A stretch of DNA of 64,000 nucleotides from an uncultured bacterium (GTDB lineage: Bacteria > Joyebacterota > Joyebacteria > Joyebacterales > Joyebacteraceae). Below the pieces are notes generated by a model. It ran no database searches, was not told the origin of the DNA, and saw nothing but the letters and a program-made list of their open reading frames with translations. The stretch spans positions 3,444 to 67,443 of the forward strand of contig CAYNQF010000002.1 in NCBI GenBank assembly GCA_964399265.1, given 5' to 3'. The stretch's first letter is position 1. The number at the start of each line of letters is the position of its first letter. Made by a program: the position numbers and the translations under genes. Positions 1 through 33,089 of the stretch are shown piece after piece.

Positions 1-2805
1 GACGACTACGTCCTCTTCTACGGGCTGTCGTTCCACGACCAGTTCGTCATCAATGGCTACGAGAACCGGTACGGCGCAAACAACGTCTACTGGTTCGGTT
101 GGGGCACCGGCCTGGCCGCACGGATGACCAGTCGAACGGCGTGGCTCGACGAGCCCGGACTGACGCCTCCCGCCAGCTTCCGCGACACGTTGCGGTCTGA
201 GAAGGACGTCTATTACGACTCGACGCCCAGCTCGAGCTTCATCGACTACTACAGCTGGACCAGTTACACGGCGTACAACGACCACTACGAGCTGCCGTTC
301 CGGCTCTACGACCTGCTGCCGACCGGCACGGCCGTGCTCACGGCACGATACCAGGGGATGACCGGCGGAACGCACCGCATCGACTTGAGCGTTGAGAACG
401 GCGCCTCGCAGGAGAACTACGTCGGGGCGTTCGTCTTCACCGGCGAAGCGTATACGATGGACAACGACATCTACACGTCGGCTCCGGTCGCGAACTCGTA
501 CTTCACTGAAGGCCTGAACTACCTTATCGCTGTTGGGAGCCTCGGGACGATGGGCTCGGGAGCGAACCTGGACTGGTTCTCGTGGAGCTACGACCGCGAG
601 TACCGGGCTCACGACGACCGCCTGAGCTTCACGAACGCGCTGCAGACGGGGACCCAGGAGTTCGACGTGACAGGGTTCTCCTCAGACGCGCTGATGGCAT
701 TCGACGTCACGCACCCGTTCTCGCCGGTCATGCTCACGCTGCACCAGAACAACATCGAGCAGAACGGAGGGACGTACGACCTCGTGCTCCAGGAGGTGGT
801 CCCCGGCTTTACGCGGTATGAAGCCGCCACCGAGGACGCGTTCCTGAGCCCCGAGGCAGTCGAGCGCCGGGAGCCCGCGAACCTCTACGCGCAGGAGGCC
901 GACCTCATCGTCGTGTCATACGACGGATTCGCGCAGACGGCCGACGCGCTGGTCGAGCGACGCGAGCAACAGGGGTACGCCGTCGCGCACGCCCGCCTCT
1001 CCGAGGTCTACGACGAGTTCGGAGGGGGGCTTCCCGGGCCGCAGCCGCTCAGGAACTACTTCATGTACGCTTACGACGCGTGGGAGCGGCAGCCGCAGTT
1101 CGTGCTCCTTATCGGAGACGCGAGCGAGGACACGAAGCAGGTCCTGTCCACGAGTTCTCCGAATTACATGCCGACCTACCTGTTCCCGGCGTCCGACGAC
1201 AAGTTCGCTGCGAGCGACCAGTGGTACGTGAGGACTGCGGGGTCGCCGTATCTTCCTCTCATGTTCATCGGACGGTTGCCCGCGGGAGGAACCGGACAGC
1301 TGTCGAACTTCATCGACAAGATCGGAACCTACGAGAGCTATTCCTACGGGGACGGCTGGCGCAACAAGGACCTCTTCATCGCCGATGACGCGTGGTCGTA
1401 CATCTCGCTGGAGTCGGACTACACGTTGAAACCGAGCGAGGTCGATTTCACCACCATCAGTCAGGAACTATCTGATGTGGCTGCCGCGTCACCCGCCGGG
1501 ATCGACACCGTGAACTTCTTCCTGCGGCGGTACACGGACCCCTATCACGGAAGCACGACCTCCGGTGACATCTTCTACGCGGTGCAGACGGCCGACTGGG
1601 TACGCAACGACGGCCCGCGGGCCGATCTCATGGGGATGCTCAACAGCGGCGCGGCTCTGGTCAATTTCGAGGGTCACGGCAACCGAACCCAGATGACGCA
1701 CGAGCAGTTGATACTGGCGACCGTGCAGTCCTCGAGCAACGACATCGCCGCGCTCAACAACGAGAACAAGCCCTTCGTCTTCCTCGGCTTCAGCTGCGAG
1801 CTTGCGCGGTTCTATGACTATCGCGAGGGGACCTCTATCGACTGCATCACGGAGCAGATGCTCCAGCGCGACAACGGGCGCGGTGCTTCGGCGACGTTCG
1901 CCTGCAGCGACCGCGCGTTCATCTTCACGAACGTGCGACTCCACAGGAAGATCTACGAGGCGCTCTTCACCGACCCGACGCCCGAGGGCGACGGCATCTA
2001 CCACTGGCCGCGGTGGGCGCTCGGCGGGACCATCGCGAAGGGCGTGATCAAGTATCTGACCGCATCAGGCAATCCAACGGGTCCGCAAACGTACATGCTG
2101 TTCGGCGATCCGCTCATGCACATCGACATGAGCCCGCCCAGGTTCGAGGTGACCGTGGACGGCGTCCCGCATGTGAGCGGCGACTTCCTCGCGTCGTCTC
2201 CGGAGGACGTGACTATCGTCGCTGACATCATCGACGAGGTCGAGATAGACCCGTCGACCATCAGCGTCGAGGAGACCGACACCGGGGTCGTGGATCACTC
2301 CGACTACACGGTCGTGGCCATCGGCGACACCGTGGGTGAGGCCAGCAGATGGTACAGGCTCACCTATACCACGCCGGTCCGGGACTGGAGCTACGACATC
2401 AGGTTGTCGGCGACCGACTTCACGGGGGCGCGCACGAACTTCACGCTGCACGTGGCCGAAGGGCAGCGCATACTCATCCGGGACGTGGCGAACTACCCCA
2501 ATCCGTTCTCCGAAGACACCAACATCATCTACCTGCTCAACCAGGGCGGCGCCGAGGTCAGGATAAGGATCTTCACCGTCGGCGGCCGGCTCATCCGCGT
2601 GATCAGAGACGCGCCCGGCAACCTCAACTACAACCAGGTGTCGTGGGACGGACGCGACGAGCAGGGCGACGAGGTGGCGAGCGGTATCTACCTCTACGTT
2701 ATCGACGTGAAGGGAGAGGACGGCTCGACCGCGACCACGCCGGTGGGACGCATGGCGAGGATCGCGGGAGCGAGGCCGGTCGGGGACGGCGGCGGACGCC
2801 GATGA
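1..2805 (+). CDS. Peptidase C25 (gingipain-like) cysteine protease with C-terminal FlgD-like/T9SS-type sorting domain; 5' end lies outside window (frame 1 is open from base 1)
   Basis: C25-like segments ('QFVLLIGDASEDTK', His in 'FEGHGNRTQM', Cys in 'FLGFSCELARF'); C-terminal 'NYPNPFSEDTNIIY...IFTVGGRLIRVI...SWDGRDEQGDEVASGIYLYVI'; high GC3 in this frame. Confidence 0.7.
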   Translation, partial: DDYVLFYGLSFHDQFVINGYENRYGANNVYWFGWGTGLAARMTSRTAWLDEPGLTPPASFRDTLRSEKDVYYDSTPSSSFIDYYSWTSYTAYNDHYELPFRLYDLLPTGTAVLTARYQGMTGGTHRIDLSVENGASQENYVGAFVFTGEAYTMDNDIYTSAPVANSYFTEGLNYLIAVGSLGTMGSGANLDWFSWSYDREYRAHDDRLSFTNALQTGTQEFDVTGFSSDALMAFDVTHPFSPVMLTLHQNNIEQNGGTYDLVLQEVVPGFTRYEAATEDAFLSPEAVERREPANLYAQEADLIVVSYDGFAQTADALVERREQQGYAVAHARLSEVYDEFGGGLPGPQPLRNYFMYAYDAWERQPQFVLLIGDASEDTKQVLSTSSPNYMPTYLFPASDDKFAASDQWYVRTAGSPYLPLMFIGRLPAGGTGQLSNFIDKIGTYESYSYGDGWRNKDLFIADDAWSYISLESDYTLKPSEVDFTTISQELSDVAAASPAGIDTVNFFLRRYTDPYHGSTTSGDIFYAVQTADWVRNDGPRADLMGMLNSGAALVNFEGHGNRTQMTHEQLILATVQSSSNDIAALNNENKPFVFLGFSCELARFYDYREGTSIDCITEQMLQRDNGRGASATFACSDRAFIFTNVRLHRKIYEALFTDPTPEGDGIYHWPRWALGGTIAKGVIKYLTASGNPTGPQTYMLFGDPLMHIDMSPPRFEVTVDGVPHVSGDFLASSPEDVTIVADIIDEVEIDPSTISVEETDTGVVDHSDYTVVAIGDTVGEASRWYRLTYTTPVRDWSYDIRLSATDFTGARTNFTLHVAEGQRILIRDVANYPNPFSEDTNIIYLLNQGGAEVRIRIFTVGGRLIRVIRDAPGNLNYNQVSWDGRDEQGDEVASGIYLYVIDVKGEDGSTATTPVGRMARIAGARPVGDGGGRR

Positions 2806-19090: not shown

Positions 19091-19732
19091 CTAGCGGTAC
19101 AGCGACTTCACCATTCCCCAGGTCGACGACTCGACCGGAGAGGCGCCGGCGCACTCGTAGGTGCCAAGCGGGAACGGAGTGGCGGCCGTCGCGTTCGTGG
19201 TCTCGTTGTCGAGCGCGTTAGTGCCGCTGTAGATCCAGTTCTCGAGAACGAACGTCGAGCCATCAGGACCGGTGCCGTTGACCCGGTAAACCCAACCGTC
19301 CAGGTAGTCCCAGGCCGTTCCCGTGCCGTCGACGTTGATGTCGCCGAACACGTCCACGACGCTGCCGTTCATGAACAGCTCTATGGCGTCGTCGCCGTTG
19401 ATGTTCGGGGCGTTGGCGTCGGTGTAGTCCGGGGCGAAGCCGAAGAACGCGGTGAATGCGTCCACGTCGTACGAAACATAGATGTACTGGCCCGCGACCG
19501 CGGAGTCGGCCGGGAAGGTGAACTCCTCGCCGTCCGTGCCGCCGCCGTTGTTGGCGGACCCGAGCCCGTAGATCGAGAGGTCGGCGATGTCGGCGCAGGC
19601 GACCACCTCGATCGCCTTCGGGATCCCGCCCGTGAGCGGACCGTCGACCACGCCGGTTATGACGAGGTCGGAAGCGCCGGCGCCCGTGGCGGCCAGCGAG
19701 AGCACTACGGCTATCATGACCAACTGTCTCAC
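19091..19732 (-). CDS. Secreted lamin-tail-domain (LTD) protein ending in the novel C-terminal motif '...GASPVESSTWGMVKSLYR'
   Basis: GTG start with AGGAGG RBS; signal 'MRQLVMIAVVLSLAATGAGA'; LTD-like 'LVITGVVDGPLTGGIPKAIEVV'; C-terminal tail shared with two other proteins. Confidence 0.6.
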   Translation of the reverse strand: MRQLVMIAVVLSLAATGAGASDLVITGVVDGPLTGGIPKAIEVVACADIADLSIYGLGSANNGGGTDGEEFTFPADSAVAGQYIYVSYDVDAFTAFFGFAPDYTDANAPNINGDDAIELFMNGSVVDVFGDINVDGTGTAWDYLDGWVYRVNGTGPDGSTFVLENWIYSGTNALDNETTNATAATPFPLGTYECAGASPVESSTWGMVKSLYR

Positions 19733-19777
19733 AGGATCCTCCTATGTGAGAGGTAGTAGAACCTACGCACTTGACAT

Positions 19778-19807
19778 ATTGTACCACATAAGTGACAGGA
19801 CACGCAA
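19778..19807 (-). promoter_or_regulatory. Candidate sigma70 promoter (TTGCGT-18-TGgTACAAT, minus strand) for the LTD gene
   Basis: Reverse complement gives an extended -10 TGGTACAAT about 45 nt upstream of the GTG start. Confidence 0.4.
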
Positions 19808-20007
19808 GAGCTGGGATGGTGCGAGACCTGTTCAGAAGGCCCCAGTGGCCGGGCCTTCCAGGTGATGGCGCGTGCAAGGGGGGAGGCGAGGCTCGTGACG
19901 ACTGACATAGCGAGGAGCACCGCGGTCGACACGATTGGCCCGGGCCCATCGCCAGGTCCGGACCTATCGCAAGGCCCAGACCTATCGCTCGCCGCAGGCC
20001 TATCGCC

Positions 20008-20745
20008 TCATTGCCCCAGCACTTCTTCCAGGAAGAGTGTGAACCGCTCCCAGGACTTGCGGTCCGCATCCGGTCTGTAGCGACTCGTTCCAAACACCGT
20101 GAAGGCGTGTGGTGCTTCCCCGTAGGTGATCATCTCGTACGGAAGGCCTGCCGCCTCGAGTTCAGCGGAGAGGCGCGCGAAGTCCTCCATGCTGACGCTC
20201 TGGTCGGCGCCGCCGTGCAGCACCAGAAACTCACCCTTCGCCTGAGAATAGTCCTGACCCTCGGGCGTGCGCAACACGCCGTGGAACGTGACGTACCCCC
20301 TGAGGTCGGCTCCAGACCTTGCCAGCTCGAGGACCGCCGCGCCGCCGAAGCAGTAGCCGACGGCAACGGTCCTCGTCGCGTCTGCGCCCTGCCCGCGTGC
20401 CACATCCAGGGACGCGGCGAGACGCGAGCGCAGCAGTCTCCGGTCCTGGTAGAATTCCCCGGTCAGCCGCCTGCTCTCATCGGCCGAGTTCGGACGCACG
20501 CCCTTCCCGAAGAGATCCGCCGCGAACACCGCGTACCCCAGCTCGGCGAGCATATCGGCGCGGGTCATCTCGTAGTCGTCGAGCCCGCTCCAGTCGTGAA
20601 CGAGAAACACCAGAGGGGCCACTGTAGGAGGGGCGACGTAGTACCCCTCGAACGTCTTCCCGTCGGCCTCGTATGTCACTGGCATGCCATCGCGCCGCGC
20701 AGACCGGATGAGTCCGAGAGGCGTCGCCGGGAGAAGAGACATCAT
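20008..20745 (-). CDS. Dienelactone hydrolase family protein
   Basis: 'AVGYCFGG' nucleophile elbow, alpha/beta-hydrolase layout, about 245 aa; ATG overlaps upstream stop (ATGA) at 20742-20745. Confidence 0.8.
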   Translation of the reverse strand: MMSLLPATPLGLIRSARRDGMPVTYEADGKTFEGYYVAPPTVAPLVFLVHDWSGLDDYEMTRADMLAELGYAVFAADLFGKGVRPNSADESRRLTGEFYQDRRLLRSRLAASLDVARGQGADATRTVAVGYCFGGAAVLELARSGADLRGYVTFHGVLRTPEGQDYSQAKGEFLVLHGGADQSVSMEDFARLSAELEAAGLPYEMITYGEAPHAFTVFGTSRYRPDADRKSWERFTLFLEEVLGQ

Positions 20746-23141
20746 CGCGAACCTCCGCGCTTCTTCGGCGCGGGCCTTGCAGGGCTCGGCGCAGGCCTTG
20801 CGGGCTTCGGCGCGGGGGTGCTCCGTGGCTTCGCCTTCTTCTCCAGAGCTTTTCCGCGACTTCTCGCCTTGTGCGCCTTGTTCAACTCCTCCTGCGTACC
20901 CTTCGCCGGGCCGGCCTGCTTCTTCGGCGGAACACGCTTGCTCTTCTCCACCTTCTGCCATTTGCCGCCCTGCTCCTTGTAGACCTTGCCGTCGGGCGCC
21001 GCGTATATGTTGTTCTCCTTGGTCGCCTTTCTGGGCTTCTTCATCTCCAGCGGGGCCTTGGGCGCTCTCCTGGGCTCGTGCTTCGTTGGTCCGACGATCG
21101 TGACGTTGCCCGCCGGTTTCTTGGGCTTCGCCGGGACTCGACCGGTTCCCTCTCTGGGGATGGGTCTCACGGGAGTGCCGGGCACACGCTCTATGGCGCG
21201 CGGCGTGCGCTGTTCCACCTTGCCCCCCTTGGAGGCGAGGTGTTCTCCGCCCGACAGCACTATCCCCTTCGGGTGCTTCCTGAAGAGGTTCCTGTTGTCG
21301 GTACCCCTCACCACGCCGGGATGCTGCGCGGGATGGTACCCGGCATACTTGCTGTCCCAGTAACCGTCGTGGTCACCATGGTGGTAGCCGCCCCCGTGGC
21401 CGTGATGATGGCCGTGGTGGTAGCCGTGGCGGTAGCCGTAGACGTACCCGCCAGGTCCCCACCAGCCTGTGTACCAGGGGCGCCCGTACCAGAGGTCGAG
21501 CCAGCCCAGGCTGACGCCGAAGTAGAGCCCCCAGCCTGTGTAGGGCCGCCACTGCGCACCGTAGCCCCACGTCGAGAACCTCGGGTAGTAGTGGTGTCTG
21601 TACCAGGGGCGGTAGTGGTAGCCGGTGCCGTAAACCACGCAGCCGCGGTAGACGTACGAGCCCAGATAGCCCGGCGTGTAGCCCACGTAGATGATGTCCG
21701 GCGTCACGTTGTAGATGTAGACGTACCGGACGTTGTAGTAGGGGCAGGTGGGTGGCAGGGTCTGCACCTGCGCAGGCACCCGCGTCGCAACGAGCCACGG
21801 GCCATTGGCGTAATCCGACACGAACCAGACGGCGTTGTCGCAGCAGTAGTACTCGTTGTCGACGAGCAGCACCGCCTTGTCCGCATTGGCGGCGTACGCG
21901 ACGTCGCCGGAGCAGAGCACGAACTCGGGGTTGCCGTCGTAAGTCACGGTCACCGCGGTCGTGTTGCGCTCAACCTCGGCGGTCTGAGGGATCAGGTTCT
22001 CGGCCACCGCGTCGGCCGCTTCGTCCGTCCCGGCTATGCTGGCGCGCACGTCCGCCATCTCGGAGTCGGCCGGTATCCCGTAGAAGTCGGCCGGCAGGAG
22101 GTCGGGCGCCACGAACGTCCAGTCGTTCCCGGACAGTGAACCCGACATATACCACCGTCCGGACAGCAGGACGTAGTAATGCTGCGTCGGGGTGTGCATG
22201 ATGATGTCGCTCTCGGAGTTCTGAACATAGAGCAGGTCCGTCCCCTCTATGGGGGCGAGCTGCGGTTCTCCGTCGGTCTCGATCACCTCCGCGGGGACGG
22301 CGCTCACCACCACTCTCGGTGTCGGGACGTCGACCAGAGAGAGAGCGGGATCGGCAGTCTGCGGATCGGAGGACAGAGTCTCTTCCCGCTTCTTCTCCTG
22401 CGCCTCGACGTCCGCGGCGACGGCCGACACCTTAGGCGGGAGCGATGATGTCACCCGCCAATCCCCGAGAATGTCTCCGCTCGTGTACCAGTGCCCGCCT
22501 CCGTACAGGAAGTAGCGGTCGGTGTCCGGATCCAGCAAGATGTAGAAGGGAGTGTTGACGACGTATTCGAGGCCCGAATTTTCGAGGTCGTTCAGGATGG
22601 GGTCACCGTCGATCGTGACCAGCACCGTGGGCTCGGAGGCGTAGATGATCTTGGGCGGGGAGTTGTCCAGGTCTGACACTCCGCCGTACGACTCCTCTAG
22701 CGGCGCGAGCCCGGCGATCAGGCTGTCCATCGACATGACCATCTCCCACTTCGGGAGTTCTTCCTCGACGTAGTCGGCCAGGCGGCGGCCCTCCTCGGTG
22801 GTGGAGTCGGGAAAGCGCGCGTCCGTCACGGTCATCGACTCGAGAGAGGCCGTTCTCGCGTCAGTGTCGGTGGCGATCCGCGCGTCGAACCACACGGCTC
22901 CGAAGACGGGAGCCGACTCGCCATTCGGGATGACTGACACGGCCGCACGGGCCTTGAGCATGTCGCCCGAGTACTCCTCGATCTGCGGCTGGTAGATCAC
23001 GATCTGGCCCTGCTCTCCGTCAAGCTGCCTCGGCCAGGGCAGGACGCTTGATTCCTGCGACGCTGCAGGCAGGGTCGCCAGCAGCAGGGGGACGACCAGT
23101 GTCGCAGTGCCCAACCACTTAAATGGCGATAATGACTTCAT
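20742..23141 (-). CDS. Secreted hypothetical protein (about 800 aa) with Tyr/Trp/Gly/His-rich low-complexity region and highly basic Lys/Pro-rich C-terminal tail
   Basis: Signal 'MKSLSPFKWLGTATLVVPLLLATLPAASQ'; 'YGYRHGYHHGHHHGHGGGYHHGDHDGYWD'; C-terminal 130 aa is KPKKPxxPAPK-rich. Confidence 0.6.
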   Translation of the reverse strand: MKSLSPFKWLGTATLVVPLLLATLPAASQESSVLPWPRQLDGEQGQIVIYQPQIEEYSGDMLKARAAVSVIPNGESAPVFGAVWFDARIATDTDARTASLESMTVTDARFPDSTTEEGRRLADYVEEELPKWEMVMSMDSLIAGLAPLEESYGGVSDLDNSPPKIIYASEPTVLVTIDGDPILNDLENSGLEYVVNTPFYILLDPDTDRYFLYGGGHWYTSGDILGDWRVTSSLPPKVSAVAADVEAQEKKREETLSSDPQTADPALSLVDVPTPRVVVSAVPAEVIETDGEPQLAPIEGTDLLYVQNSESDIIMHTPTQHYYVLLSGRWYMSGSLSGNDWTFVAPDLLPADFYGIPADSEMADVRASIAGTDEAADAVAENLIPQTAEVERNTTAVTVTYDGNPEFVLCSGDVAYAANADKAVLLVDNEYYCCDNAVWFVSDYANGPWLVATRVPAQVQTLPPTCPYYNVRYVYIYNVTPDIIYVGYTPGYLGSYVYRGCVVYGTGYHYRPWYRHHYYPRFSTWGYGAQWRPYTGWGLYFGVSLGWLDLWYGRPWYTGWWGPGGYVYGYRHGYHHGHHHGHGGGYHHGDHDGYWDSKYAGYHPAQHPGVVRGTDNRNLFRKHPKGIVLSGGEHLASKGGKVEQRTPRAIERVPGTPVRPIPREGTGRVPAKPKKPAGNVTIVGPTKHEPRRAPKAPLEMKKPRKATKENNIYAAPDGKVYKEQGGKWQKVEKSKRVPPKKQAGPAKGTQEELNKAHKARSRGKALEKKAKPRSTPAPKPARPAPSPARPAPKKRGGSR

Positions 23142-23317
23142 AATGGTCCTCCTGTCGGGAATCCAGAGGCGCGCCCCCTGGTGAGCCCGACACATAGGAT
23201 GCAGGACGGGGCCCGGCGTGACTGCACTTGCGGTACGTGCGTGCTATCTCTTTGGTCGGCGAGCGGCGGTGAAGGATTCACTGGGCGCTCGCCGTGCGCA
23301 TCGCCCTACGATTTCGT

Positions 23318-23346
23318 TTGACTTAAATGGGTGGGTGGACTATCTT
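23318..23346 (+). promoter_or_regulatory. sigma70 promoter TTGACT-17-TATCTT (copy 2 of the module)
   Basis: Paralogous to 8056-8084. Confidence 0.55.
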
Positions 23347-23353
23347 GAAGCCA

Positions 23354-23432
23354 AGCAGAGGCGACCACGTCGGTATGGTGACATATCCGAAGACTCTCAA
23401 GAGGGACCTGGCGCAGAGGCCGGTCCCTTTTT
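23354..23432 (+). ncRNA. Candidate small RNA / csp leader-attenuator, copy 2
   Basis: Conserved with 8092-8170; ends in gggacc(t)ggc-gcagag-gccggtccc + TTTTT (23403-23432). Confidence 0.4.
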
Positions 23433-23617
23433 GCGTTTCAGGGGCGCCATGAGGCGCCCCAGGATATGCCCCAGGCCGGCGGTCGGTGACGGCGTCGCCT
23501 GCAGGGGAGGACAGGCCCCTTAACTGAGGATGTCGGAAAGCCTGGTTGAGAGGCGCCGACGACACGATCGCGGGCGAGGCACGATTCTCGCCGCGAGAAC
23601 AAGAGAGGCAGCATACA

Positions 23618-23830
23618 GTGAGTACCACCGGAACCGTGAAGTGGTTCAACGACGCCAAGGGCTTTGGCTTCATCTCCTTGGAGGATGGGTCGAAGGACGT
23701 ATTCGTTCACCATTCGGCGATCCAGGGCGACGGCTTCAAGACGCTGAACGAAGGTGATCGCGTGCAGTTCGATGTCGTGCAGGGCGAGAAGGGCCCGGCG
23801 GCCGAGAACGTCACGAAGATCGTCGAGTAG
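23618..23830 (+). CDS. cspA: Cold-shock protein, CspA family, paralogue 2 (70 aa, GTG start)
   Basis: 96 % identical to the 8357 copy apart from a one-codon indel (GGDEF versus GDGF). Confidence 0.9.
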
Positions 23831-23869
23831 TCGGAGACTCAGGATCGCAGACCGATGCATCAGTTCACC

Positions 23870-23910
23870 GGGCCGCCCTCTGGCGCAATGAGGGCGGCCT
23901 CTTCGTTTCT
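23870..23910 (+). terminator. Hairpin terminator after cspA copy 2 (gggccgccct-N11-agggcggcct + cttcgtttct)
   Basis: Conserved position and stem relative to copy 1. Confidence 0.5.
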
Positions 23911-23946
23911 CGCCTGTTCGGAGAGCACACCATCAAGGAGCCCCCA

Positions 23947-25458
23947 TTGAACGCGCTCCTGATCTACCCGAAGAACCCCGAGACCTTCTGGAGCCTTACG
24001 CACGCCCTCCGGCTCATCAACCGGAAGGCCGCTTCACCTCCACTCGGGCTCCTGACGGTCGCCGCCCTTCTACCTTCCGACTGGAATCTGCGCCTCGTCG
24101 ACCTGAACGTTGGCGTCTTGACCAACGACGACCTGGTCTGGGCCGACTGCGCTCTAGTGAGCGGCATGATCGTGCAGAAGAACTCGGCACTGGAGGTCGT
24201 CACTCGCTGCAAGTCGGCGGGCCTGACCGTGATCGCCGGCGGGCCGCTCTTTGCGTCGGAGGAAGAGAGGGCCGCGTTCACCGGTGTGGATCACTTCGTG
24301 CTGAACGAGGCAGAGCTGACCCTCCCGCCGTTCCTCCAGGACCTCGAGCGGGGCACGACACGCCGCACGTACCGCACAGACCAGTACGCCGACATGACCA
24401 CCACGCCCGTACCTCGCTGGGATCTCCTGGATCCGCGCGAGTACGCCTCACGTGGCGTCCAGTTCTCACGTGGCTGTCCGAACAACTGCGAGTTCTGCGA
24501 GGTCACGCAGCTGTTTGGGCATCGCTGGAGGACGAAGGCGGTCTCTCAGGTCATTGCCGAACTGGACGTACTCGACGGACTCGGGTGGCACGGTGTCGTC
24601 CCATTCGTCGACGACAACTTCAACGCGAAGGGGCGGTACCTGCGCGGCGAGCTTCTTCCCGCGCTGATCGAGTGGAGGCGAGGCAAGCGCGGCATGAACT
24701 TCAGCGCTCAGGTCACGATGGAACTCGCCGACGACCCCGAGCTGATGCAGATGATGGTGAGCGCGGGTTTCGACACTGTCTTCATCGGGATCGAGACGAT
24801 GGACGAGGCGAACCTCGCCGAGTGTCACAAGCGGCAGAATCGCAACCGCGACCTTCTGGCCGACATCAAGCGCATCCAGAGGGCGGGCCTCCAGGTCCAG
24901 GCGGGCTTCATCGTCGGTTTCGACAACGACACGCCCTCGGTCTTCGAGCGGATGGGCGAGTTCATACAGAAGAGCGGTATCGTTACCGCGATGGTCGGAA
25001 TGCTCCAGGCTCCGATCGGCACGGCTCTCTACAAGAGGCTCGACCGCGAGGGGCGGATTCGCACCGGTCTGTCGGGTGACAACTCCGACGGCACGACGAA
25101 CATCGTTCCGAGCATGGGCTTGGGTCCGCTCCAGGAAGGGCACAAGAGGCTCCTGAGAGAACTCTACTCGCCGGCGAACTACTACCGTCGAGTGAAGACC
25201 TTCCTCCGCGAGTACCGCCCGCCCAGGGCGAACACTCACATCTCCCGCTCACACGTCCTGGCGGCCGTCAGGTCGTTCTACTACCTGAGCCTCGCGGGTC
25301 GTGAGCACTGGCAGTTCCCCGGCCTTCTCATCTGGACCCTGTTCCGGCGCCCCAGGGCTCTTCCGGTCGCCGTCGTTCTCGCCATCTACGGCTATCACTA
25401 CCGCAAGAGCTACGAGCCTCTCTTCAGTTCGGTCACCTCCGTCACCGCTCGTGCCTGA
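23947..25458 (+). CDS. B12-binding radical SAM / DUF4070 protein, paralogue 2 (503 aa, TTG start)
   Basis: 'CPNNCEFC'; same length and about 85 % identical to the 8690 copy. Confidence 0.85.
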   Translation: MNALLIYPKNPETFWSLTHALRLINRKAASPPLGLLTVAALLPSDWNLRLVDLNVGVLTNDDLVWADCALVSGMIVQKNSALEVVTRCKSAGLTVIAGGPLFASEEERAAFTGVDHFVLNEAELTLPPFLQDLERGTTRRTYRTDQYADMTTTPVPRWDLLDPREYASRGVQFSRGCPNNCEFCEVTQLFGHRWRTKAVSQVIAELDVLDGLGWHGVVPFVDDNFNAKGRYLRGELLPALIEWRRGKRGMNFSAQVTMELADDPELMQMMVSAGFDTVFIGIETMDEANLAECHKRQNRNRDLLADIKRIQRAGLQVQAGFIVGFDNDTPSVFERMGEFIQKSGIVTAMVGMLQAPIGTALYKRLDREGRIRTGLSGDNSDGTTNIVPSMGLGPLQEGHKRLLRELYSPANYYRRVKTFLREYRPPRANTHISRSHVLAAVRSFYYLSLAGREHWQFPGLLIWTLFRRPRALPVAVVLAIYGYHYRKSYEPLFSSVTSVTARA

Positions 25459-25843
25459 GGTTGCCGCAACGGGACCGTCGTCAAGGCTACGACGAACCTC
25501 TCTCTTGACGGCAGCCGGCTGACCGGCGATGGCCGGGCGACGTATAGCCGGCTTCACGGGGTCCGGCGTTGCGGGCGGGAATGCGGTGCGCTGGTGCGAG
25601 CTGTATCTCACGGCGTGCCCTCCCTTTCGGGGGGCACGCTTCTTTCTGTCTCTCCCGGCTTCCGGTCAGGCAGTGTGCGGTCCCCAAGCCATTCCATGGT
25701 AGACTTGGCGTGCTCGATCGTTTCAGAGATGAGAGGGGAAGCTGGCCACCGCAGGGTAGCTCGTGTGGTATGGTTCGACGCTATTCTGGAAAGTCGTTGC
25801 GAAGCGGACGGACGCTCGCGGAACAACCCGAAGGGAGAGTGCA

Positions 25844-26974
25844 ATGAGGAAGCTCGCTACAGCATTCGTCGCGGTGCTGCTGGTTCTGGTCGCAGTAGGA
25901 GGCGCGGAGGCGAAGTGGGTAGAGAAGCGACGTCCCACCAAGCCCACGGCCGAGATCCTGAAGAGAGGCGAACTCGATTGCTCGTCGGCCATCCCCATCT
26001 CGGTCGGGGAGACGGTGTACAGCACCAACGTGGGCGCTCCGAGCAACGCGGACGGATATCCCGAGTGCATAGCCTGGAACGAGTCAGGTGGCGAGGTCGT
26101 GTACGAGCTGACCATCGACGGACCCACGTGCCAGGACATCGGGATCGCCCTCTGGTACAGAGTCGACCTGGACCTGGACCTCGACTGGTTCCTCCTGGAT
26201 AGTTGTGACGAAAATGGCCAGTGTGTCGAGTTCGACGATTATAGCGACATAGTCGACTGCCTGGCGCCTGGAACCTACTACCTCATCGTGGACGGGTACT
26301 ATGGCGACGAGAGCGAGTACATCCTCTGCGTGTATCGCAACGAGCCCATAGCGGAGTGCTCGCCCCTAACGTCGGTATGCCACGAGTGGAACTTCAATAC
26401 GAGCGACGAGGGGTTCGAGCACGTCCAGTGCGGGATACCTCAGTACGCTTGGGAATGGGGCCCGGCTCCGGACGGGATCCCTGAGACGGCCTGTGGCGGC
26501 ATCCAGGTCAACAACGTCCTGTGTACCGGGCTCGAGGGCGAGTATGTCAACAACGCAGGCGACGCCGCCGTCGTGGGTCCGGTCGTGCTGGGAGAGGACT
26601 GCAACTGCCTCGAGCTGTGCCACTTCTACTCGTTGGAAGACGGCGTGGACCAGGGCATGGTCGGTCTCACGGCCGACGTGGGCGTGACCTGGAACCTGCT
26701 CACGCCCGCTCGCGGCTACGACGACTACGGCGACTGGGATAACACGTGTATCGGGCCGTACCCCGCGTTCCAGGAATCGGGCGCCACGGAGTTCAGGACC
26801 GACTCGTTCGACCTCACGCCGTGGATAGGAGAGACGGTCTTCGTCGGCTTCTTCTTTGGCTCCAACAGCTCTGTGTCCGACCTGGGCTGGTACATCCTCC
26901 GTGCGGCGATAGGGACCTCCGGGAGTCCGGTGGAAAGCACCAGCTGGGGCGCCATCAAGGCCATGTATCGTTGA
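25844..26974 (+). CDS. Secreted Cys-rich protein with PPC/pre-peptidase-C-terminal-like beta-sandwich domain, ending in the novel tail '...SGSPVESTSWGAIKAMYR'
   Basis: Signal 'MRKLATAFVAVLLVLVAVGGAEA', AAGGGAGAG RBS; 'DCSSAIPISVGETVYSTNVG...YYLIVDGYYGDESEYIL' PPC-like. Confidence 0.5.
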   Translation: MRKLATAFVAVLLVLVAVGGAEAKWVEKRRPTKPTAEILKRGELDCSSAIPISVGETVYSTNVGAPSNADGYPECIAWNESGGEVVYELTIDGPTCQDIGIALWYRVDLDLDLDWFLLDSCDENGQCVEFDDYSDIVDCLAPGTYYLIVDGYYGDESEYILCVYRNEPIAECSPLTSVCHEWNFNTSDEGFEHVQCGIPQYAWEWGPAPDGIPETACGGIQVNNVLCTGLEGEYVNNAGDAAVVGPVVLGEDCNCLELCHFYSLEDGVDQGMVGLTADVGVTWNLLTPARGYDDYGDWDNTCIGPYPAFQESGATEFRTDSFDLTPWIGETVFVGFFFGSNSSVSDLGWYILRAAIGTSGSPVESTSWGAIKAMYR

Positions 26975-27076
26975 CGTATCGCTGATGACGCATCGAGATC
27001 ATGCGTGAGCGATGGATACGCCGGGCGGCGGCAGCCGGTGTATCACGCGGGTCTTCTTGTTGTCCTGTTGTCTGGT

Positions 27077-28045
27077 TCAGAAGAGGATTCCGGCGGTCGC
27101 GCTGAGGCGGAACTGAAGGCTGTCGATCTCGTACGGCAAGTCGGCGATGACCGCGCCTGCCGGCATGTCCTCGTCGCGGTACCACCGCTGGGCGACATGG
27201 CCGACGGCGTGGAAGTACCTGACCTCTCCGGCCAGGCTCACCGAGAGCCAGTCGAGCGAGGGTGAGCCCGGCACGAGGTCGAGCGTGGCGCTCGCGCCCG
27301 CGCCGATCCCCCAGCCCCGACCTTCGGAGATCCGTCCCCTGAGGAGATGGTCGTCCGTGTCCGTCGCTCTAACCACTCCGACGGTTGCCTTGGCTCCCAG
27401 GGCCGAACGGGTGCCCACGGCGCACCCCAGCCCGGCCCCCAGTTGTCCGCTCAAGTACGTGACCGAGTAGTCGATGACCCGGGCCGTTCCGGACACCGCG
27501 ACCTGCTCGTCGGAGAACAGGCTGCCGCGCCATCCCTCGTAGCCGACGACGTACTGCTCTATCCGCTGGTAGTCCAGGTGGAAGAGGATGGAGGTGCTAA
27601 CTCTGCGCTCGCCCGGCAGCCTGTAGGATACGTCCGCCGTGGCCAGGATCACGTCGAGCTCGGTGTCGGATTCCGTGTACGAGAGCCGTGTCGCTCCAAC
27701 CCAGTCCTCATCGGTGACCCTGGCGGATGGGTTGTCGAGGTTCGTGTGGATCCCGGCGCCCAGCGTCCATCCGCCGTGACCGGCAGTTCGCGGACTCCAG
27801 CCGGCCGTCACGCCCACGAGCGTGGTCTCCAGGGGGAACTCGAGTGTGCTGTGAATGTCGACTAGGCTCCCGGGGTCCGTCGGGTCCTCGGCTCTCGCCG
27901 ACATCCGGTAGGAGGTGCTTCCCGTCCACTGCGATACCGACGCCCCGACGTGCAAACCGGGCGGGGGAGACGCGACGGATTCCGCCGGTCTCCCCCAGAA
28001 GAGAGCAATCAGACACAGCGCTGTCACCACGACCCTGCGCATCAC
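27077..28045 (-). CDS. Outer-membrane beta-barrel protein (omptin/MipA-like), ends in Phe
   Basis: Signal 'MMRRVVVTALCLIALFWG'; alternating amphipathic strands; C-terminal '...LSATAGILF'. Confidence 0.5.
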   Translation of the reverse strand: MMRRVVVTALCLIALFWGRPAESVASPPPGLHVGASVSQWTGSTSYRMSARAEDPTDPGSLVDIHSTLEFPLETTLVGVTAGWSPRTAGHGGWTLGAGIHTNLDNPSARVTDEDWVGATRLSYTESDTELDVILATADVSYRLPGERRVSTSILFHLDYQRIEQYVVGYEGWRGSLFSDEQVAVSGTARVIDYSVTYLSGQLGAGLGCAVGTRSALGAKATVGVVRATDTDDHLLRGRISEGRGWGIGAGASATLDLVPGSPSLDWLSVSLAGEVRYFHAVGHVAQRWYRDEDMPAGAVIADLPYEIDSLQFRLSATAGILF

Positions 28046-28078
28046 ACCCCCGGGGTCTCGAGGAGCGGGACGTACGCT

Positions 28079-29185
28079 CTAGAACGGCAGACCGTACCAG
28101 CATCCTCGTTCGCCGCAGTCTCCGCCCTCGAAGTCGCCCCAGACGACGGCATTGCCGACCACGTAGAAGCCGGCCGCGCCGACCTGGAATGGTCCGTAGC
28201 TGTCGCTCTGCACGTCATCGAGACCGACGTTGGCGTAGGGGTAGTGCGGCGGAGCTACCGAGTACTCTCCTTCGTACAGCGGCAGAGGCTCATCGCCGAT
28301 GTAGAGATGTGTCTCGGTCATCGTGTAATCGCCGCACGTGGCCAACGTCACCATCGCCTGGCCGTAGAAATAGTCGACCACCATCTCTCCAACGAGAGTG
28401 GCTTCGGCCAGATCGCACTCGACGGCGCCGACGTACAGGTCGAAGTGGTACGAACCATCGTAGGGTATGAAGTTCGTCCAGCCCCAGTGGTCAAAGTCCG
28501 GCAGGCCGTCGTTGTTCAGGTCCAGCTCGGCGAAGCATGTCGCGGCCTCGCAGCCGTACCCGAACGCGATCTCGGAGCCGTCATCATCGGGCGGTTCGGT
28601 GGGGTCGCAGATGAACTCGATGCCGAAGAACGTCGCCCAGTTGCCCTTGCTGACGATGCGGTAGCCGTCGCCCCAGCCGGTCTCCGTCTGGTAGCTACCG
28701 TCTCCGTTGTCCTTTCGGAGCGCAGCGTGGGCGGCCGCGAGCAGCTCTTCGCCGCACAGCCCCGCCTCGCCTCCGAACTCATCGAGCGGCACGATGAACG
28801 TGTACGTGGTCTCGCCCGTGATGTCGCCTGCGTTGTATGGGAAGTTGCCGACCTTCGGGTTGCCCTTGTTGGTCTGCGGCATGTCGTTGAGCGACTGGCC
28901 GACCCACAGGTGGGCTTCGACGAGTTCCCATCCGTTCGCGGTGTTGTAAGTGACCCAGAGTTCCTCGGTCTCTCCGCTGTCGACTATCTCGAGGCACACG
29001 GTGCCGGCGTCGATCGTCTGACCCGCGAAGAGCGTGGTGCAGTACTGCCCCTGCGTCCCGTTGACGCCATAGACCGACAGCGTCGAGAGCACGCTCAACG
29101 GAGCGATCGGGCTCTCCTGGCTGCAGCCTACGATGCCGACGGACAACAGGACTGCGAACACAACGAGCGCCAACTTGGCCTTCAT
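28079..29185 (-). CDS. Cys-rich lipoprotein, hypothetical; likely co-transcribed with the downstream OM beta-barrel
   Basis: Lipobox 'LLSVGIVGCS'; 34-nt gap to the barrel gene; C-terminal '...WYGLPF'. Confidence 0.5.
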   Translation of the reverse strand: MKAKLALVVFAVLLSVGIVGCSQESPIAPLSVLSTLSVYGVNGTQGQYCTTLFAGQTIDAGTVCLEIVDSGETEELWVTYNTANGWELVEAHLWVGQSLNDMPQTNKGNPKVGNFPYNAGDITGETTYTFIVPLDEFGGEAGLCGEELLAAAHAALRKDNGDGSYQTETGWGDGYRIVSKGNWATFFGIEFICDPTEPPDDDGSEIAFGYGCEAATCFAELDLNNDGLPDFDHWGWTNFIPYDGSYHFDLYVGAVECDLAEATLVGEMVVDYFYGQAMVTLATCGDYTMTETHLYIGDEPLPLYEGEYSVAPPHYPYANVGLDDVQSDSYGPFQVGAAGFYVVGNAVVWGDFEGGDCGERGCWYGLPF

Positions 29186-29397
29186 GGGTGCTCCTCCCTG
29201 ATGAAGTCTACAGGCCAAACCGCCGGCCGCACCTGTAACAAGCCGCGCGGCTCGATGCCTTCACTGCAATAGGCGGGCCATTCGCTTGTCGCATAGCCGG
29301 CGGTTTCAGGGAGTGTTCATCGCGGGCGGAATTCAGTAGTGAGGGGCGGGTCGCTGTGCCGCCGGGGGCGCTGCATTGCGCGGCGCTGGAGAAAGTC

Positions 29398-31638
29398 CTA
29401 CTTAACGAGCATGACCTTGGAGGTCCGGGTCTCGTCCCCGGCCTCCAGGCGAACAAAGTACATGCCCGCGGCCACCGGGTTCCCCTCGCCGTCGACTCCG
29501 CTCCAGCCCGTCTCGTGTGGGCCTCCGGACTGCGTTCCGTCCTCTAGGACCGCGACTTCGCGTCCCGCGACGTCATAGATGCCTAGCCGGACATGCATGC
29601 GGAACGGCAGCGAGTACTGGATGGTCGTTGACGGCGTGAACGGGTTGGGGTAGCTCTGCTCCAGCCTGAGGCTCGAGCCTTCTCCTTCGTCTCCGTCGTC
29701 GGTTCCGGTGGTGTCCGCGAACTCGTAGACGGCGACTTGGTAGCCCGACAAGTGGAAGCCTCCCACCTCGTAGTCGGCATTGACCGTTACGTTCAGCGTG
29801 TCGCCGGGGTCCAGCAGGTTGACGAGCGTATGCTCGCCCGGGGCCAGACTCTGCGACGACCCGGTCAGGTTGACGCTCCCGAAGGCACTCGAAGAAGTGT
29901 TGGCGAGGCAGAGCACCGTCTGCTGCTCGTCGCTTCGGACGAACGCCAGGACGGGAGAGTCCGATGTTCCCAGCGGCACGTGCACACCCCTGCGGAGGGC
30001 GGGGGATTCGTTGCGGACGGCTATGAGTTCCTGATACCAGCGAAGCAGGGACCCGGAGTCCTGTAGTTCCGTCGCAACATTGTAGTCTACATAGTTGGAG
30101 TTGACCGCCCGCCATGGGGTTCCGGTAGTGAAGCCGGCATTCGCGCCCGCGGTCCACTGCATGGGAGTCCTGATGTTCAGGTGGTCGCCTGCTCCCGTCA
30201 TCCCGATCTCCTCGCCGTAGTAGACGAACGGGATGCCCGGCAGCGTCATGCAAATGCCCGCCGCGACCTTCGCCTTTCCTTCGCTCTCACCCAATACGCT
30301 GAACGTGCGGTCCTGGTCGTGGTTGGTGAGGAACGTTCCCCACTGCAGATACGGGTAGACGTGATAGACCTCGTTCGCCTTGTAGCCGAGCGCGCCAGCG
30401 TCGCCCCAGTTGACCGCGTTCAGCATTGAGTAGGAGAGGTCGAACTCGAAGCAGAAGTCGATCCTGTCGTCGGTCACGTACTGCTGGACGATGCTAGTCG
30501 ACGTCCACGCCTCGCCGACCGTCATCGCGTCCGGCCTTACGGCCTCGATGTACGTGTTGAAGTCGTGCCAGAACTCGAGCGTCTCCGGCGTGTTCTGAAG
30601 CTGGTCCCCGTCCTCGATGATGTAGAGCACCGCGTCGAGGCGGAACCCGTCGACACCGATCGTGTCCAGCCAGTACGCCGCGGTCTGGAACATGCTGTCC
30701 TTGACCGCCGGCGTCCGGTAGTTCAGGTCGGGCATGTCTCCGCCGAACAGCCCGTAGTACCAGTCCGAGCCGTCTCTGTGCCATACCTGCTGGCCCCAGG
30801 GACCCGTCTGGTCGGGGTCGTAGGACGACCATCGGAAGAAGTCGCGGTACTGCGCGTCTCCGGCGGCCGACTGCACGAACCACGGGTGCTCGTCGGAGCA
30901 GTGGTTCATGACGTAATCGATGATGACCTTGATGCCACGCGCATGCGCGGCCGCGAGGAACGTCCTGAAGTCGTCCATGGTCCCGTAGTCGGGATTGATA
31001 GAGCGATAGTCGACGGAGTCGTATCCGTGGTAGCTAGGGGAGTCGTTGATCGGCATGAGCCATATGCCGGTGATGCCTAGGTCGTCATGCGTGGACGGGT
31101 CACCGTCGTTCAGGTAGTCGAGCTTCTGCGTCAGTCCCTGGAAGTCGCCTGTGCCGTCACCGTCGCTGTCGTAGAAGCTCCTGACGAAGATCTCGTAGAA
31201 GACCCTGTCATTCCACCAGTGCAGCTCGCCCACGCCTCCGTTGGGCGCAAGGTCGTTGTACCAAACGAGTATCGTGTCGTTGTTCGATGGCACCGTGTAG
31301 AACCGGTTGTTGCCGACGCCCGGGAACTCCTCTGTTCCGTCCCACTCTCCGTTCATCCGGAACTTGTACTCGATCTGTTCGTATGGGGTGAAACCCGACA
31401 CGGTGACTCCGTATATCGTGTCGCCGTCGGCGTCGGAGAGAGGGGTGAGAGGGTCCGTCCCCCAGTCATTGAAGGTGCCCGCGACGTCTACGAAGTCGGT
31501 CGCCGGGTCGAAGTTGCCAATCTCGACCTGATAAGACATCCGGACGCGGAAGGTGATATCGACCGCGTGTGCGCTCGAGACGAACAGGAGCGCCAGCAGC
31601 ACGGCTGCCGCGGCGGCCCTCAGGTGCGTTCTGTTCAT
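29398..31638 (-). CDS. Secreted GH13 alpha-amylase-family glycoside hydrolase with N-terminal carbohydrate-binding module and C-terminal FlgD-like sorting domain
   Basis: Start at Met 'MNRTHLRAAAAAVLLALLFVSSAHA'; 'GVDGFRLDAV', 'IIDYVMNHCSDEHPWF' GH13 regions; C-terminal 'SYPNPFTPSTTIQY...IYDVAGREVAVL...GMYFVRL...KVMLVK'. Confidence 0.85.
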   Translation of the reverse strand: MNRTHLRAAAAAVLLALLFVSSAHAVDITFRVRMSYQVEIGNFDPATDFVDVAGTFNDWGTDPLTPLSDADGDTIYGVTVSGFTPYEQIEYKFRMNGEWDGTEEFPGVGNNRFYTVPSNNDTILVWYNDLAPNGGVGELHWWNDRVFYEIFVRSFYDSDGDGTGDFQGLTQKLDYLNDGDPSTHDDLGITGIWLMPINDSPSYHGYDSVDYRSINPDYGTMDDFRTFLAAAHARGIKVIIDYVMNHCSDEHPWFVQSAAGDAQYRDFFRWSSYDPDQTGPWGQQVWHRDGSDWYYGLFGGDMPDLNYRTPAVKDSMFQTAAYWLDTIGVDGFRLDAVLYIIEDGDQLQNTPETLEFWHDFNTYIEAVRPDAMTVGEAWTSTSIVQQYVTDDRIDFCFEFDLSYSMLNAVNWGDAGALGYKANEVYHVYPYLQWGTFLTNHDQDRTFSVLGESEGKAKVAAGICMTLPGIPFVYYGEEIGMTGAGDHLNIRTPMQWTAGANAGFTTGTPWRAVNSNYVDYNVATELQDSGSLLRWYQELIAVRNESPALRRGVHVPLGTSDSPVLAFVRSDEQQTVLCLANTSSSAFGSVNLTGSSQSLAPGEHTLVNLLDPGDTLNVTVNADYEVGGFHLSGYQVAVYEFADTTGTDDGDEGEGSSLRLEQSYPNPFTPSTTIQYSLPFRMHVRLGIYDVAGREVAVLEDGTQSGGPHETGWSGVDGEGNPVAAGMYFVRLEAGDETRTSKVMLVK

Positions 31639-31928
31639 CGGCGTTCCAGACCTTGTGTTGGGGATGAAGGCCAAGTTGCGTGTCTGCATACCATTATACA
31701 CCACATCCGCTCCCTCACACGGTCGTACCTGCGCCGGGCCATCGTCGCGGCGCAGCGACATGACCTGGCGGTACAGCGACAGGGCCTCGCGGCGCGCCGA
31801 CAGGGCCCAGCCGTCGGCCGCTGCGGCAGCGGGGGCGGTCGTCCGTGCGGTGCGTTGACATAGCTCGGGTCCGGTGGAATACTGAATGCTGGTGCTCGTC
31901 CCGCCTGCTGCCGAAAGGGGGCCGTCCG

Positions 31929-33089
31929 ATGACCAGACCTCTCTTCCTCTCACTCCTTCTCGCCCTTGTCTCGGCCGTTCAGGCCAACGCGAGTCTCATC
32001 GTCGTGGACCAGTCCGGAACCGGCGACTTCACAACGATCTCGGAGGGCGTCGGCGTGGCGGTCGTCGGCGACACGGTGCTCGTCATGCCGGGCGTCTACA
32101 CGGGTCCGCTCAACCGCAACATCGAGATGCACTACCTGATGGTCACGGCACCGGGCGGACCCGGGATCACGACCATAGACTGCGAGCACGCTGGGTACGC
32201 GTTCTATGCGTGGAACACAAGCATATCCGGGTTCACGGTCAGGCACGGCGTGGGCGTGCCTGAGGTGCAGTTCGGCGCCGTGTTCATCAGGGACGGGGAG
32301 CTGTCCGACTGCGTTCTGGAGGACAACGACTGCATGGGTCTCGTGACCTACGGCGGCAGCTCGATCACCGACTGTGTCTTCAGAGGCAATACGGACTACG
32401 GTGTGGAGCTGGGTCCGGAGGGGCTCATGGGCAGGAGCATGGTCAGCGACTGCCTCTTCGAAGGGAACGCGAGAGGCCTGCATGTCTACATGCCGGACAC
32501 CGGCAGGCCCATTCCACCGCGCTGGATCCTGGACTGCACCTTCATCGACAACGGTCTGCCTGTGGTCGCGGCCTACTACACGAGCCCGGTTGTTCAGAGG
32601 TGCGTTATCGCGGGCAACTACGGCAGCGGCAGCTGCATCGCATTGACGGCGAGCTACTGCGAACTGCGGCAGTGCACCATCGTCGGCAACGAGAGCAGCT
32701 CGGGAGCCGTCTTCCAGTTCGCCTCCGACGTGCACTACGACTGCGGCTGCTCGATAGCGTACAGCATCGTCGCCTTCAACTCGTGTCAGCAGCTGGCCGG
32801 CGGCATTCCCGGAGATTCCGCGTTCTCGAACGACTGCGTTTTCGGGAACGCGTGGGGGGACACATTCCCTGGTGACCTGAACTCGTCCGGCGTCGTCGCA
32901 GAGGATCCGCTGTTCTGCGACATGGACGCCGGCGACTACACGCTGTGCAGCAACTCACCCTGCCTTGCCGAGAACGAGCCCGAGGCCGTGGCCATGGGCG
33001 CATTCCCCGACGCGGCCGGGTGCCCCGCGTGCAACGGCTCACCGGTCCTCGACATCTCATGGGGAGTCATAAAGGCGCTGTTCAGGTAG
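31929..33089 (+). CDS. Secreted right-handed parallel beta-helix (pectate-lyase-fold) protein ending in the novel tail '...NGSPVLDISWGVIKALFR'
   Basis: Signal 'MTRPLFLSLLLALVSAVQA'; repeated 'xDCxFxGN' beta-helix rungs; C-terminal tail conserved with 19091 and 25844. Confidence 0.55.
   Translation: MTRPLFLSLLLALVSAVQANASLIVVDQSGTGDFTTISEGVGVAVVGDTVLVMPGVYTGPLNRNIEMHYLMVTAPGGPGITTIDCEHAGYAFYAWNTSISGFTVRHGVGVPEVQFGAVFIRDGELSDCVLEDNDCMGLVTYGGSSITDCVFRGNTDYGVELGPEGLMGRSMVSDCLFEGNARGLHVYMPDTGRPIPPRWILDCTFIDNGLPVVAAYYTSPVVQRCVIAGNYGSGSCIALTASYCELRQCTIVGNESSSGAVFQFASDVHYDCGCSIAYSIVAFNSCQQLAGGIPGDSAFSNDCVFGNAWGDTFPGDLNSSGVVAEDPLFCDMDAGDYTLCSNSPCLAENEPEAVAMGAFPDAAGCPACNGSPVLDISWGVIKALFR

Follow-up and report, generated by a model that had tools for sequence, protein, structure and literature searches.

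What is the function of a short peptide with which three otherwise unrelated secreted proteins of an uncultured bacterium all end? The question is raised by a 64,000-nucleotide stretch of contig CAYNQF010000002.1 (hereafter called the window), in which a lamin-tail-domain (LTD) protein (gene 1), a protein that fits no family (gene 2) and a right-handed beta-helix protein (gene 3) terminate in ...GASPVESSTWGMVKSLYR, ...SGSPVESTSWGAIKAMYR and ...NGSPVLDISWGVIKALFR, respectively, each followed by a stop codon. These ends reduce to a consensus of 16 residues, [ST]PVxxx[ST]WGx[IV]K[AS][LM][YF]R-stop, in which the initial annotation had seen a dedicated sorting or attachment signal. The analysis reported here favors that reading, with a probability of roughly 0.6: judging from sequence comparisons, the tail would be an undescribed, lineage-specific C-terminal tag for sorting or surface attachment, read by a partner, in Eisenbacteria/Eiseniibacteriota, Krumholzibacteriota and neighboring metagenome-assembled genomes (MAGs) of the FCB group.

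The three open reading frames (ORFs) proved to be exactly as first annotated, in their coordinates as well as in their C-terminal sequences. Searched in all six frames for WG.[IVLM]K, the window contains three sites only, with a stop codon directly after each, and the back-translated DNA pattern S-P-V-x3-[ST]-W-G-x-[IV]-K-[AS]-[LM]-[YF]-R matched three times, compared to 0.00 matches expected from 100 dinucleotide-preserving shuffles. The mature parts of the three proteins are indeed unrelated, as they fall into three separate BLAST clusters. The AlphaFold2 (AF2) model of gene 1, computed from a 51-sequence alignment, is a beta-sandwich (block pLDDT mostly 80–94) preceded by a helix at residues 2–14; its top Foldseek matches are the Ig-like domains of lamins A/C and B, and homologues of the protein carry PF00932, all of which bears out its assignment as an LTD protein. 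The beta-helix assignment of gene 3 is borne out by a PF13229 match (E=1.6e-12), and the protein belongs to a cluster of 36 tagged members. The 'PPC domain' label given to gene 2 could not be confirmed: the protein has no match in Pfam or NCBIfam, and one relative has a weak MAM-like match only. Its family is nonetheless consistently tagged (cluster of 11 tagged members) and has a recognizable GFFFGS...GWYI...IG junction; an identical protein is recorded at NCBI, on a contig of 71,023 bp. All three proteins start with a Sec-type signal peptide according to a hydrophobicity heuristic, and their common tail is, as originally noted, devoid of a transmembrane helix, for which its 16 residues are too few and, with E, K and R among them, too polar.

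The motif is not confined to three paralogous tails. When one genome for each of 185,579 species was scanned with the DNA pattern, from which the stop codon had deliberately been omitted, at least 117 loci were found in about 54 assemblies (counted by accession prefix), with at least 5–12 strict matches in single assemblies (e.g. at least 12 in CAZNHF01 and at least 8 in JAUWLR01). Among the matches listed, nearly all of the named carrier assemblies are Candidatus Eisenbacteria/Eiseniibacteriota, the others being a few Krumholzibacteriota, one Latescibacteria, two Gemmatimonadota and one labelled Woesearchaeota. This last carrier (locus L039, contig CAZJUI010000022.1, binned as Candidatus Woesearchaeota), whose tagged ORF ends in ...TPVIPVTWGTIKAMYRTR, is probably misbinned. 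As a control, the same pattern was run on 2.9 million viral contigs. It gave one match (5566–6423 of locus L119, from IMGVR_UViG_3300037264_001440), which lies in a genuinely tagged ORF, coding for a signal-peptide protein that ends in ...SPVDEETWGRVKALYR; chance matches are thus negligible. The ORF either stems from host DNA that was binned as viral or codes for a tagged protein carried by a phage.

The terminal position of the motif is a strong tendency rather than a rule. A stop codon immediately follows the tag in 114 of the 128 matches listed, and occurs within 1–8 codons in 13 more. We also built a 19-position profile, using only the window sequences and the fragments returned earlier, and searched 1.84 billion cluster representatives with it, which yielded 516 representatives at E<=1e-3. 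Among the top profile matches, the motif ends on the last residue in 129 of 147 regex-positive proteins, the remainder mostly having 1–6 extra residues or a variant last residue. The description of the tail as 'strictly C-terminal' is therefore correct for the three window proteins and for about 88–89% of their relatives, but not as a universal rule. Looser forms of the tail exist in paralogues encoded in the carrier loci (VPVEESTWGGIKALYR, SAVEEHTWGRIKATYR, ...TWSSIKALYR and ...SLYK). Note that word-indexed protein searches with tail profiles, a method ill-suited to a 16-residue motif at the end of long proteins, brought up no more than 5 and 26 candidates, short fragments for the most part.

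What is conserved is the peptide. The seed alignment of the profile shows no variation at P, V, W, K and R and has G in 80% of its sequences; among the wider profile matches, the final R does vary. Of the tails found with the DNA pattern, 74% have Glu at position 4, although the pattern had left this position free. At the DNA level, third codon positions vary as much inside the tag as they do in the coding sequence upstream of it, the Ser codons include AGC as well as TCN and the Arg codons CGN as well as AGR, and information content is at background level right after the stop codon of the tag. Read together, these patterns indicate that selection acts on the tag peptide, not on the DNA. A DNA repeat or mobile element lying across the gene ends is excluded by the free third positions, by the use of both Ser and Arg codon classes and by the lack of conservation after the stop. 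Nor does the tail form the end of some larger domain common to its carriers, since the 26 residues upstream cannot be aligned across families and the carriers fall into 47 clusters. A feature that recurs upstream is a Cys placed 2–5 residues before the tag, often in a CxxC arrangement: at position -2, its frequency is 25%, compared to a background of 3.4% (106 tagged proteins from loci L001–L117 and the window). It is found in about half of the cargo families and is not invariant.

Among the carriers, a basic-then-hydrophobic N-terminus was recognized in 97 of 102 complete tagged ORFs, using a hydrophobicity heuristic (not SignalP), and 67 of 86 long profile matches also pass this heuristic. 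The tagged proteins, mostly 180–490 residues long, are very diverse: 121 of them form 47 BLAST clusters without similarity outside the tag. The modules recognized comprise a pectate lyase, an X25+CBM20 starch-binding protein without catalytic domain, a protein with three cohesin domains, FG-GAP repeats, LTD, DUF4394, a MAM-like domain and beta-helices, all of them modules that one would expect to be extracellular or exposed on the cell surface.

Further evidence comes from the homologues of gene 1, of which 1332 were collected at E<=1e-3. Many of the best 120 have a length of about 213 residues and an identity of 60–84%, and the conserved domain ends at ...PFPxGTY, after which alternative C-terminal tails are found. 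In this set (the best 120 of 1332), the junction is followed by the tag in 53 proteins, by PEP-CTERM in at least 13 (several with a PF07589 match, and one, from Cerasicoccus frondis, named 'PEP-CTERM sorting domain-containing protein' by NCBI) and by a C-terminal T9SS (type IX secretion system) tail, PF18962, in five. A similar alternative exists among the beta-helix relatives of gene 3: some have the tag, whereas others, such as L080_4453_8001 (E=9e-25), have a C-terminal domain of the FlgD/T9SS type. As read from these alignments, the tag, PEP-CTERM and T9SS tails replace one another at the same junction of orthologous cargo, which is a 'choice of anchor' pattern. Together with the signal peptides of the carriers, this exchange constitutes strong, if indirect, support for the sorting or attachment reading.

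Two further groups of LTD homologues deserve mention. Four of them (P0241, P0247, P0253 and P0258) end in ...PVELQSF[SH][VI]E at the tail junction and correspond either to truncated gene calls or to the start of another C-terminal module. Eight distant ones (P0221, P0226, P0239, P0259, P0274, P0210, P0237 and P0278) have diverged tails, such as ...SWGSIKAMFDN and ...TLGGLKAMFNR, whose sequences suggest related tag variants in other lineages.

In one family, which has no Pfam match, the motif is also found in internal or tandem copies. P0013, P0014, P0023 and P0103 have one copy right after the signal peptide in addition to the C-terminal one; P0022, a lipoprotein, has two domain repeats with a copy after each; P0017 has two tandem copies; and P0015 (8001–8819 of locus L118), another lipoprotein, has four tandem copies at its C-terminus. 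To judge from these arrangements, the motif behaves as a portable module without an absolute need of a free carboxylate. They thus favor a docking or binding peptide, whose avidity would rise with copy number, over a terminal signal that is threaded or transpeptidated.

Structure prediction gives a hint as to the form of this peptide. In the AF2 model of gene 1, residues 197–201 (ASPVE) have a pLDDT below 50, while residues 205–212 (WGMVKSLY) form a helix detached from the domain, with a pLDDT of about 47–51. Both copies are also helical in a second model, that of a protein with an N- and a C-terminal copy (mean pLDDT 42.5, which makes it usable for secondary structure only). In our own reading of the sequence, [ST]-P-x-E resembles a helix N-capping box, and V3, W8, I11, L14 and Y15 would lie on one face of an ideal helix. 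The models thus weakly suggest that the tag is probably a short helix.

Low-molecular-weight penicillin-binding proteins (PBPs) such as PBP5 and PBP6 of E. coli are anchored by a C-terminal amphipathic helix. Could the tail be an in-plane anchor of this generic kind, lying on a membrane leaflet and requiring no dedicated machinery? Like the PBP5/6 anchors, the tag is found at the C-terminus of Sec-exported proteins, lacks a transmembrane segment and has a W...Y segment predicted at low confidence to be a short helix (by AF2 in two different proteins), on one face of which its hydrophobic residues would cluster; tandem copies, as in P0015, would increase avidity, and we found no conserved neighboring machinery. 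The mean helical hydrophobic moment of the tails (0.42) also exceeds that of shuffled sequences (0.28+/-0.13), but by only about 1 standard deviation (SD), and a calculation at the angle of a beta-strand gives a comparable value. PBP anchors of unrelated proteins are not known to share a conserved sequence, and generic anchors are not known to retain, as the tag does, invariant P, W, G and K residues plus a Glu at 74% across phylum-level distances and 47 cargo families. Finally, both the surface-type cargo and its alternation between the tag and PEP-CTERM or T9SS tails point to a place at the cell surface and not on a periplasmic leaflet. We therefore consider a generic anchor distinctly unlikely.

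As far as Pfam, NCBIfam and the literature reach, the tag is undescribed, in line with the initial annotation, which could match it to no described signal. The tails of the whole window proteins are unmatched at E<=1 in Pfam-A (2025 copy) and NCBIfam release 20, sorting-signal models included, and isolated tails, among them the four-copy tandem, have no match in NCBIfam release 20 at E<=10. Full-text literature searches, both on the motif itself and on how Eisenbacteria sort or secrete proteins, turned up nothing relevant, and the tagged proteins present in public collections are unnamed or 'hypothetical'.

How does the tag compare with the signals that are known? Eight attributes have been proposed as criteria for small C-terminal sorting signals (Haft, bioRxiv 10.1101/2023.06.07.544157), six of which the tag displays (numbers 1, 2, 3, 6, 7 and 8). 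In particular, most carriers have an N-terminal signal peptide (attribute 6; 97 of 102), pairs of carriers share nothing but the signal (attribute 7; 121 carriers in 47 clusters), and homologues with no signal or a different one exist elsewhere, as illustrated by the LTD family (attribute 8). The two attributes that it lacks are a hydrophobic segment of transmembrane length (attribute 4), as its 16 residues include E, K and R and contain no hydrophobic run longer than 3, and a group of 2–5 basic residues at the end (attribute 5), as there is a single Arg after Tyr or Phe. The comparison with individual signals leads to the same picture. Like PEP-CTERM/exosortase and the other tripartite signals (LPXTG, GlyGly-CTERM, MYXO-CTERM and PGF-CTERM), the tag is terminal, occurs many times per genome and is borne by unrelated cargo with signal peptides; it is likewise lineage-restricted and has a short signature motif, and it is interchangeable with PEP-CTERM on orthologous cargo. 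Unlike tripartite signals, it has no transmembrane segment and no Arg-rich cluster, only 16 residues with a single final Arg; it therefore allows no inference of an intramembrane sorting enzyme, and it occurs occasionally in internal or tandem copies. Nor does it fit the beta-signal of outer-membrane proteins, a terminal aromatic residue in the last barrel strand, since it ends in Arg and its cargo consists of soluble beta-helix, Ig-like and lyase folds.

On the reading favored here, the tag would resemble the secretin S-domain with its pilotin, or dockerin with cohesin: in these pairs, a short peptide or module at one end of a protein docks on a dedicated partner, which sets the protein's final location. 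In length the tag falls well short of a dockerin, and it differs from the S-domain in its spread over at least 47 cargo families.

As for the T9SS, many enzymes encoded in the window have FlgD_ig/Por_Secre_tail C-terminal domains. The tag had been described as distinct from the FlgD-like tails of other window proteins, and this is so: seven of these tails are supported by Pfam or NCBIfam matches and two by sequence or BLAST only, whereas the T9SS type A models TIGR04183 and PF18962 (72 and 75 residues long), which do match other window proteins, failed to match the tag, either in the three whole proteins (E<=1) or, for NCBIfam, as isolated tails (E<=10). Like T9SS C-terminal domains, the tag has no transmembrane helix, is found on Sec-exported surface or extracellular enzymes of the FCB group, coexists with T9SS tails in the same genome and replaces them on homologous cargo. 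Unlike these domains, which are beta-sandwiches with motifs B, D and E, it is 16 residues long and predicted to be helical.

The window also begins with a gene for a PorU-like C25 peptidase that itself has a T9SS type A tail (236 bits on the NF033707 PorU model, cutoff 420; 25 bits on TIGR04183, cutoff 23). Orthologues exist in L006, L117, L022 and seven metagenome contigs. In the related loci (L006, L117, L022 and L121–L126), the PorU-like gene is always preceded by a gene for a UshA-like metallophosphatase with four CxxCH motifs, and in all six loci with enough upstream DNA this pair is preceded in turn by an array of 1–4 small tagged paralogues of about 200 residues ('...AFAGGNP...HPDYPRWVVDCND...'). 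The tag might accordingly be an ultra-short T9SS-like substrate signal, the PorU-like peptidase cleaving near [ST]PVE and attaching the cargo to a surface glycolipid, a scheme that is compatible with a sorting tag read by a partner. Besides the gene order and the many T9SS type A tails in the window and in related genomes, the small residues that precede the tag fit such a cleavage, and T9SS signals can be short, as exemplified by the 'short CTDs' of Prevotella (PMC11969387). Those of Prevotella intermedia, however, still have several beta-strands along with motifs B, D and E (PMC11969387). Moreover, the synteny involves one cargo family among at least 47, the PorU-like proteins of the related loci score 267–279 bits, below the PorU cutoff of 420, and internal copies are ill-suited to a terminal signal. 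We therefore regard this scheme as unlikely, and the PorU-like operon as a lead only, suggested by gene order, to a link between the tag and a T9SS-like attachment complex.

The possibility that the tail has no role in sorting was also considered. It could mediate protein–protein interaction or oligomerization, act as a protease-recognition or stability element, or link the protein to peptidoglycan in the manner of Braun's lipoprotein (Lpp), the C-terminus of which is ...KYRK. The internal and tandem copies and the failure to find a machinery would suit such roles, and the ...K-x-x-Y-R end of the tag loosely recalls that of Lpp. Lpp-type linkage, however, requires a terminal Lys, whereas the tag ends in Arg and has its conserved Lys four residues from the end; it would also hold the cargo in the periplasm, at odds with pectate lyase, starch-binding modules and cohesins. 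As for a pure stability element, PEP-CTERM and T9SS tails would not take its place, one for one, at a shared junction. A role of this kind thus appears very unlikely.

The scheme that we favor, a tag read by a partner, can be laid out as follows. The protein would be exported by Sec by means of its N-terminal signal peptide; the 16-residue tail, which a flexible linker (often following a Cys) would connect with the folded cargo, would form a short helix starting from the [ST]PxE cap (as the low-confidence AF2 models suggest); and a dedicated partner would read this tail, so that the protein would be retained or placed at the cell surface. The tag would thereby fill the role that PEP-CTERM and exosortase, or a T9SS C-terminal domain, play for the same cargo in other lineages. 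The lack of a membrane-spanning segment, the tolerance of a few extra residues and the internal and tandem copies favor a non-covalent docking peptide, or a very short recognition signal tied to a T9SS-like attachment machinery of the organism, over a sortase-type transmembrane signal. The surface destination, the helical conformation, docking rather than cleavage and any role of the PorU-like operon are inferred.

Several points weigh against this scheme. Every characterized sortase, exosortase, rhombosortase and myxosortase signal has a transmembrane helix and a basic cluster, and T9SS signals have a beta-sandwich; the tag has none of these, and sorting by 16 polar-amphipathic residues has no known precedent. 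Internal and tandem copies, albeit in one family, are not expected for a strictly terminal secretion signal, and the predicted helix has a pLDDT of about 50 and a hydrophobic moment only about 1 SD above that of shuffles. All carriers are uncultured, the tag being known here from sequences and models alone, and no cognate enzyme, receptor or transporter was found. Indeed, all-against-all clustering of the ORFs of at least 120 residues in the 117 loci and the window revealed no untagged neighbor that recurs in general, except the PorU-like operon next to one tagged family. This is as expected if the cargo genes are dispersed.

The features of the window that are relevant to the tag are compiled in the following table.

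Tagged genes, tag copies, predicted signal peptides and PorU-like gene of the window (positions are those of the window)
Feature	Position	Strand	Basis
PorU-like C25 peptidase with T9SS type A tail, C-terminal 934 residues, cut by the window start	1..2805	+	PF01364 3e-64
Gene 1, secreted LTD protein of 213 residues, tag-bearing	19091..19732	-	ORF and translation
Tag copy 1, SPVESSTWGMVKSLYR, stop codon at 19091-19093	19094..19141	-	six-frame scan and DNA pattern
Gene 1, predicted Sec signal peptide, MRQLVMIAVVLSLAATGAGAS, cleavage site approximate	19670..19732	-	hydrophobic-window heuristic
Gene 2, secreted protein of 376 residues, tag-bearing	25844..26974	+	ORF and translation
Tag copy 2, SPVESTSWGAIKAMYR, stop codon at 26972-26974	26924..26971	+	six-frame scan and DNA pattern
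Gene 2, predicted Sec signal peptide, MRKLATAFVAVLLVLVAVGGAEA	25844..25912	+	hydrophobicity heuristic
Gene 3, secreted right-handed beta-helix protein of 386 residues, tag-bearing	31929..33089	+	ORF and translation; PF13229
Tag copy 3, SPVLDISWGVIKALFR, stop codon at 33087-33089	33039..33086	+	six-frame scan and DNA pattern
Gene 3, predicted Sec signal peptide, MTRPLFLSLLLALVSAVQANA	31929..31991	+	hydrophobicity heuristic

Two neighboring genes were considered as candidate machinery and rejected. One codes for a radical SAM protein and lies between genes 1 and 2, but it is not recurrent by tagged genes elsewhere; the other, an HNH gene adjoining that of the lipoprotein with four tandem copies, is unrelated. 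The radical SAM protein is one of two paralogous B12-binding radical SAM proteins with DUF4070 encoded in the window (8690–10201 and 23947–25458, both on the forward strand). An 817-residue protein encoded at 20742–23195 on the reverse strand has a signal-peptide-like N-terminus, a G/Y/H/W-rich stretch and a Lys/Pro-rich C-terminal part, with no match in Pfam or NCBIfam; the ORF that overlaps it (20008–20961, reverse strand) resembles a dienelactone hydrolase by eye only. Convergent to gene 2 are genes for an outer-membrane-protein-like product ending in ...GILF (27077–28045, reverse strand) and a lipoprotein (28079–29218, reverse strand), neither of which has a family match or recurs in the related loci.

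From C-terminal sorting tags one can tell what proteins a bacterium presents at its surface, and all known tags have pointed the way to a dedicated machine (sortase, exosortase, rhombosortase, myxosortase and T9SS). In phyla that are known only from metagenomes, the tag described here marks a large part of the predicted surface or extracellular proteome, proteins that bind or degrade polysaccharides among them. Because it has neither a transmembrane segment nor a folded domain, its reader probably works differently from the known ones. We tentatively propose, as a possibility that falls short of an even chance, that it represents a new class of sorting signal, in which a terminal peptide of 16 residues without transmembrane segment or folded domain would suffice for surface delivery, and whose machinery in Eisenbacteria and Krumholzibacteriota would be either novel or a diverged PorU-like/T9SS-related complex. 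In any case, a profile of the tag would improve the annotation of hundreds of 'hypothetical proteins' and serve as a query for this machinery.

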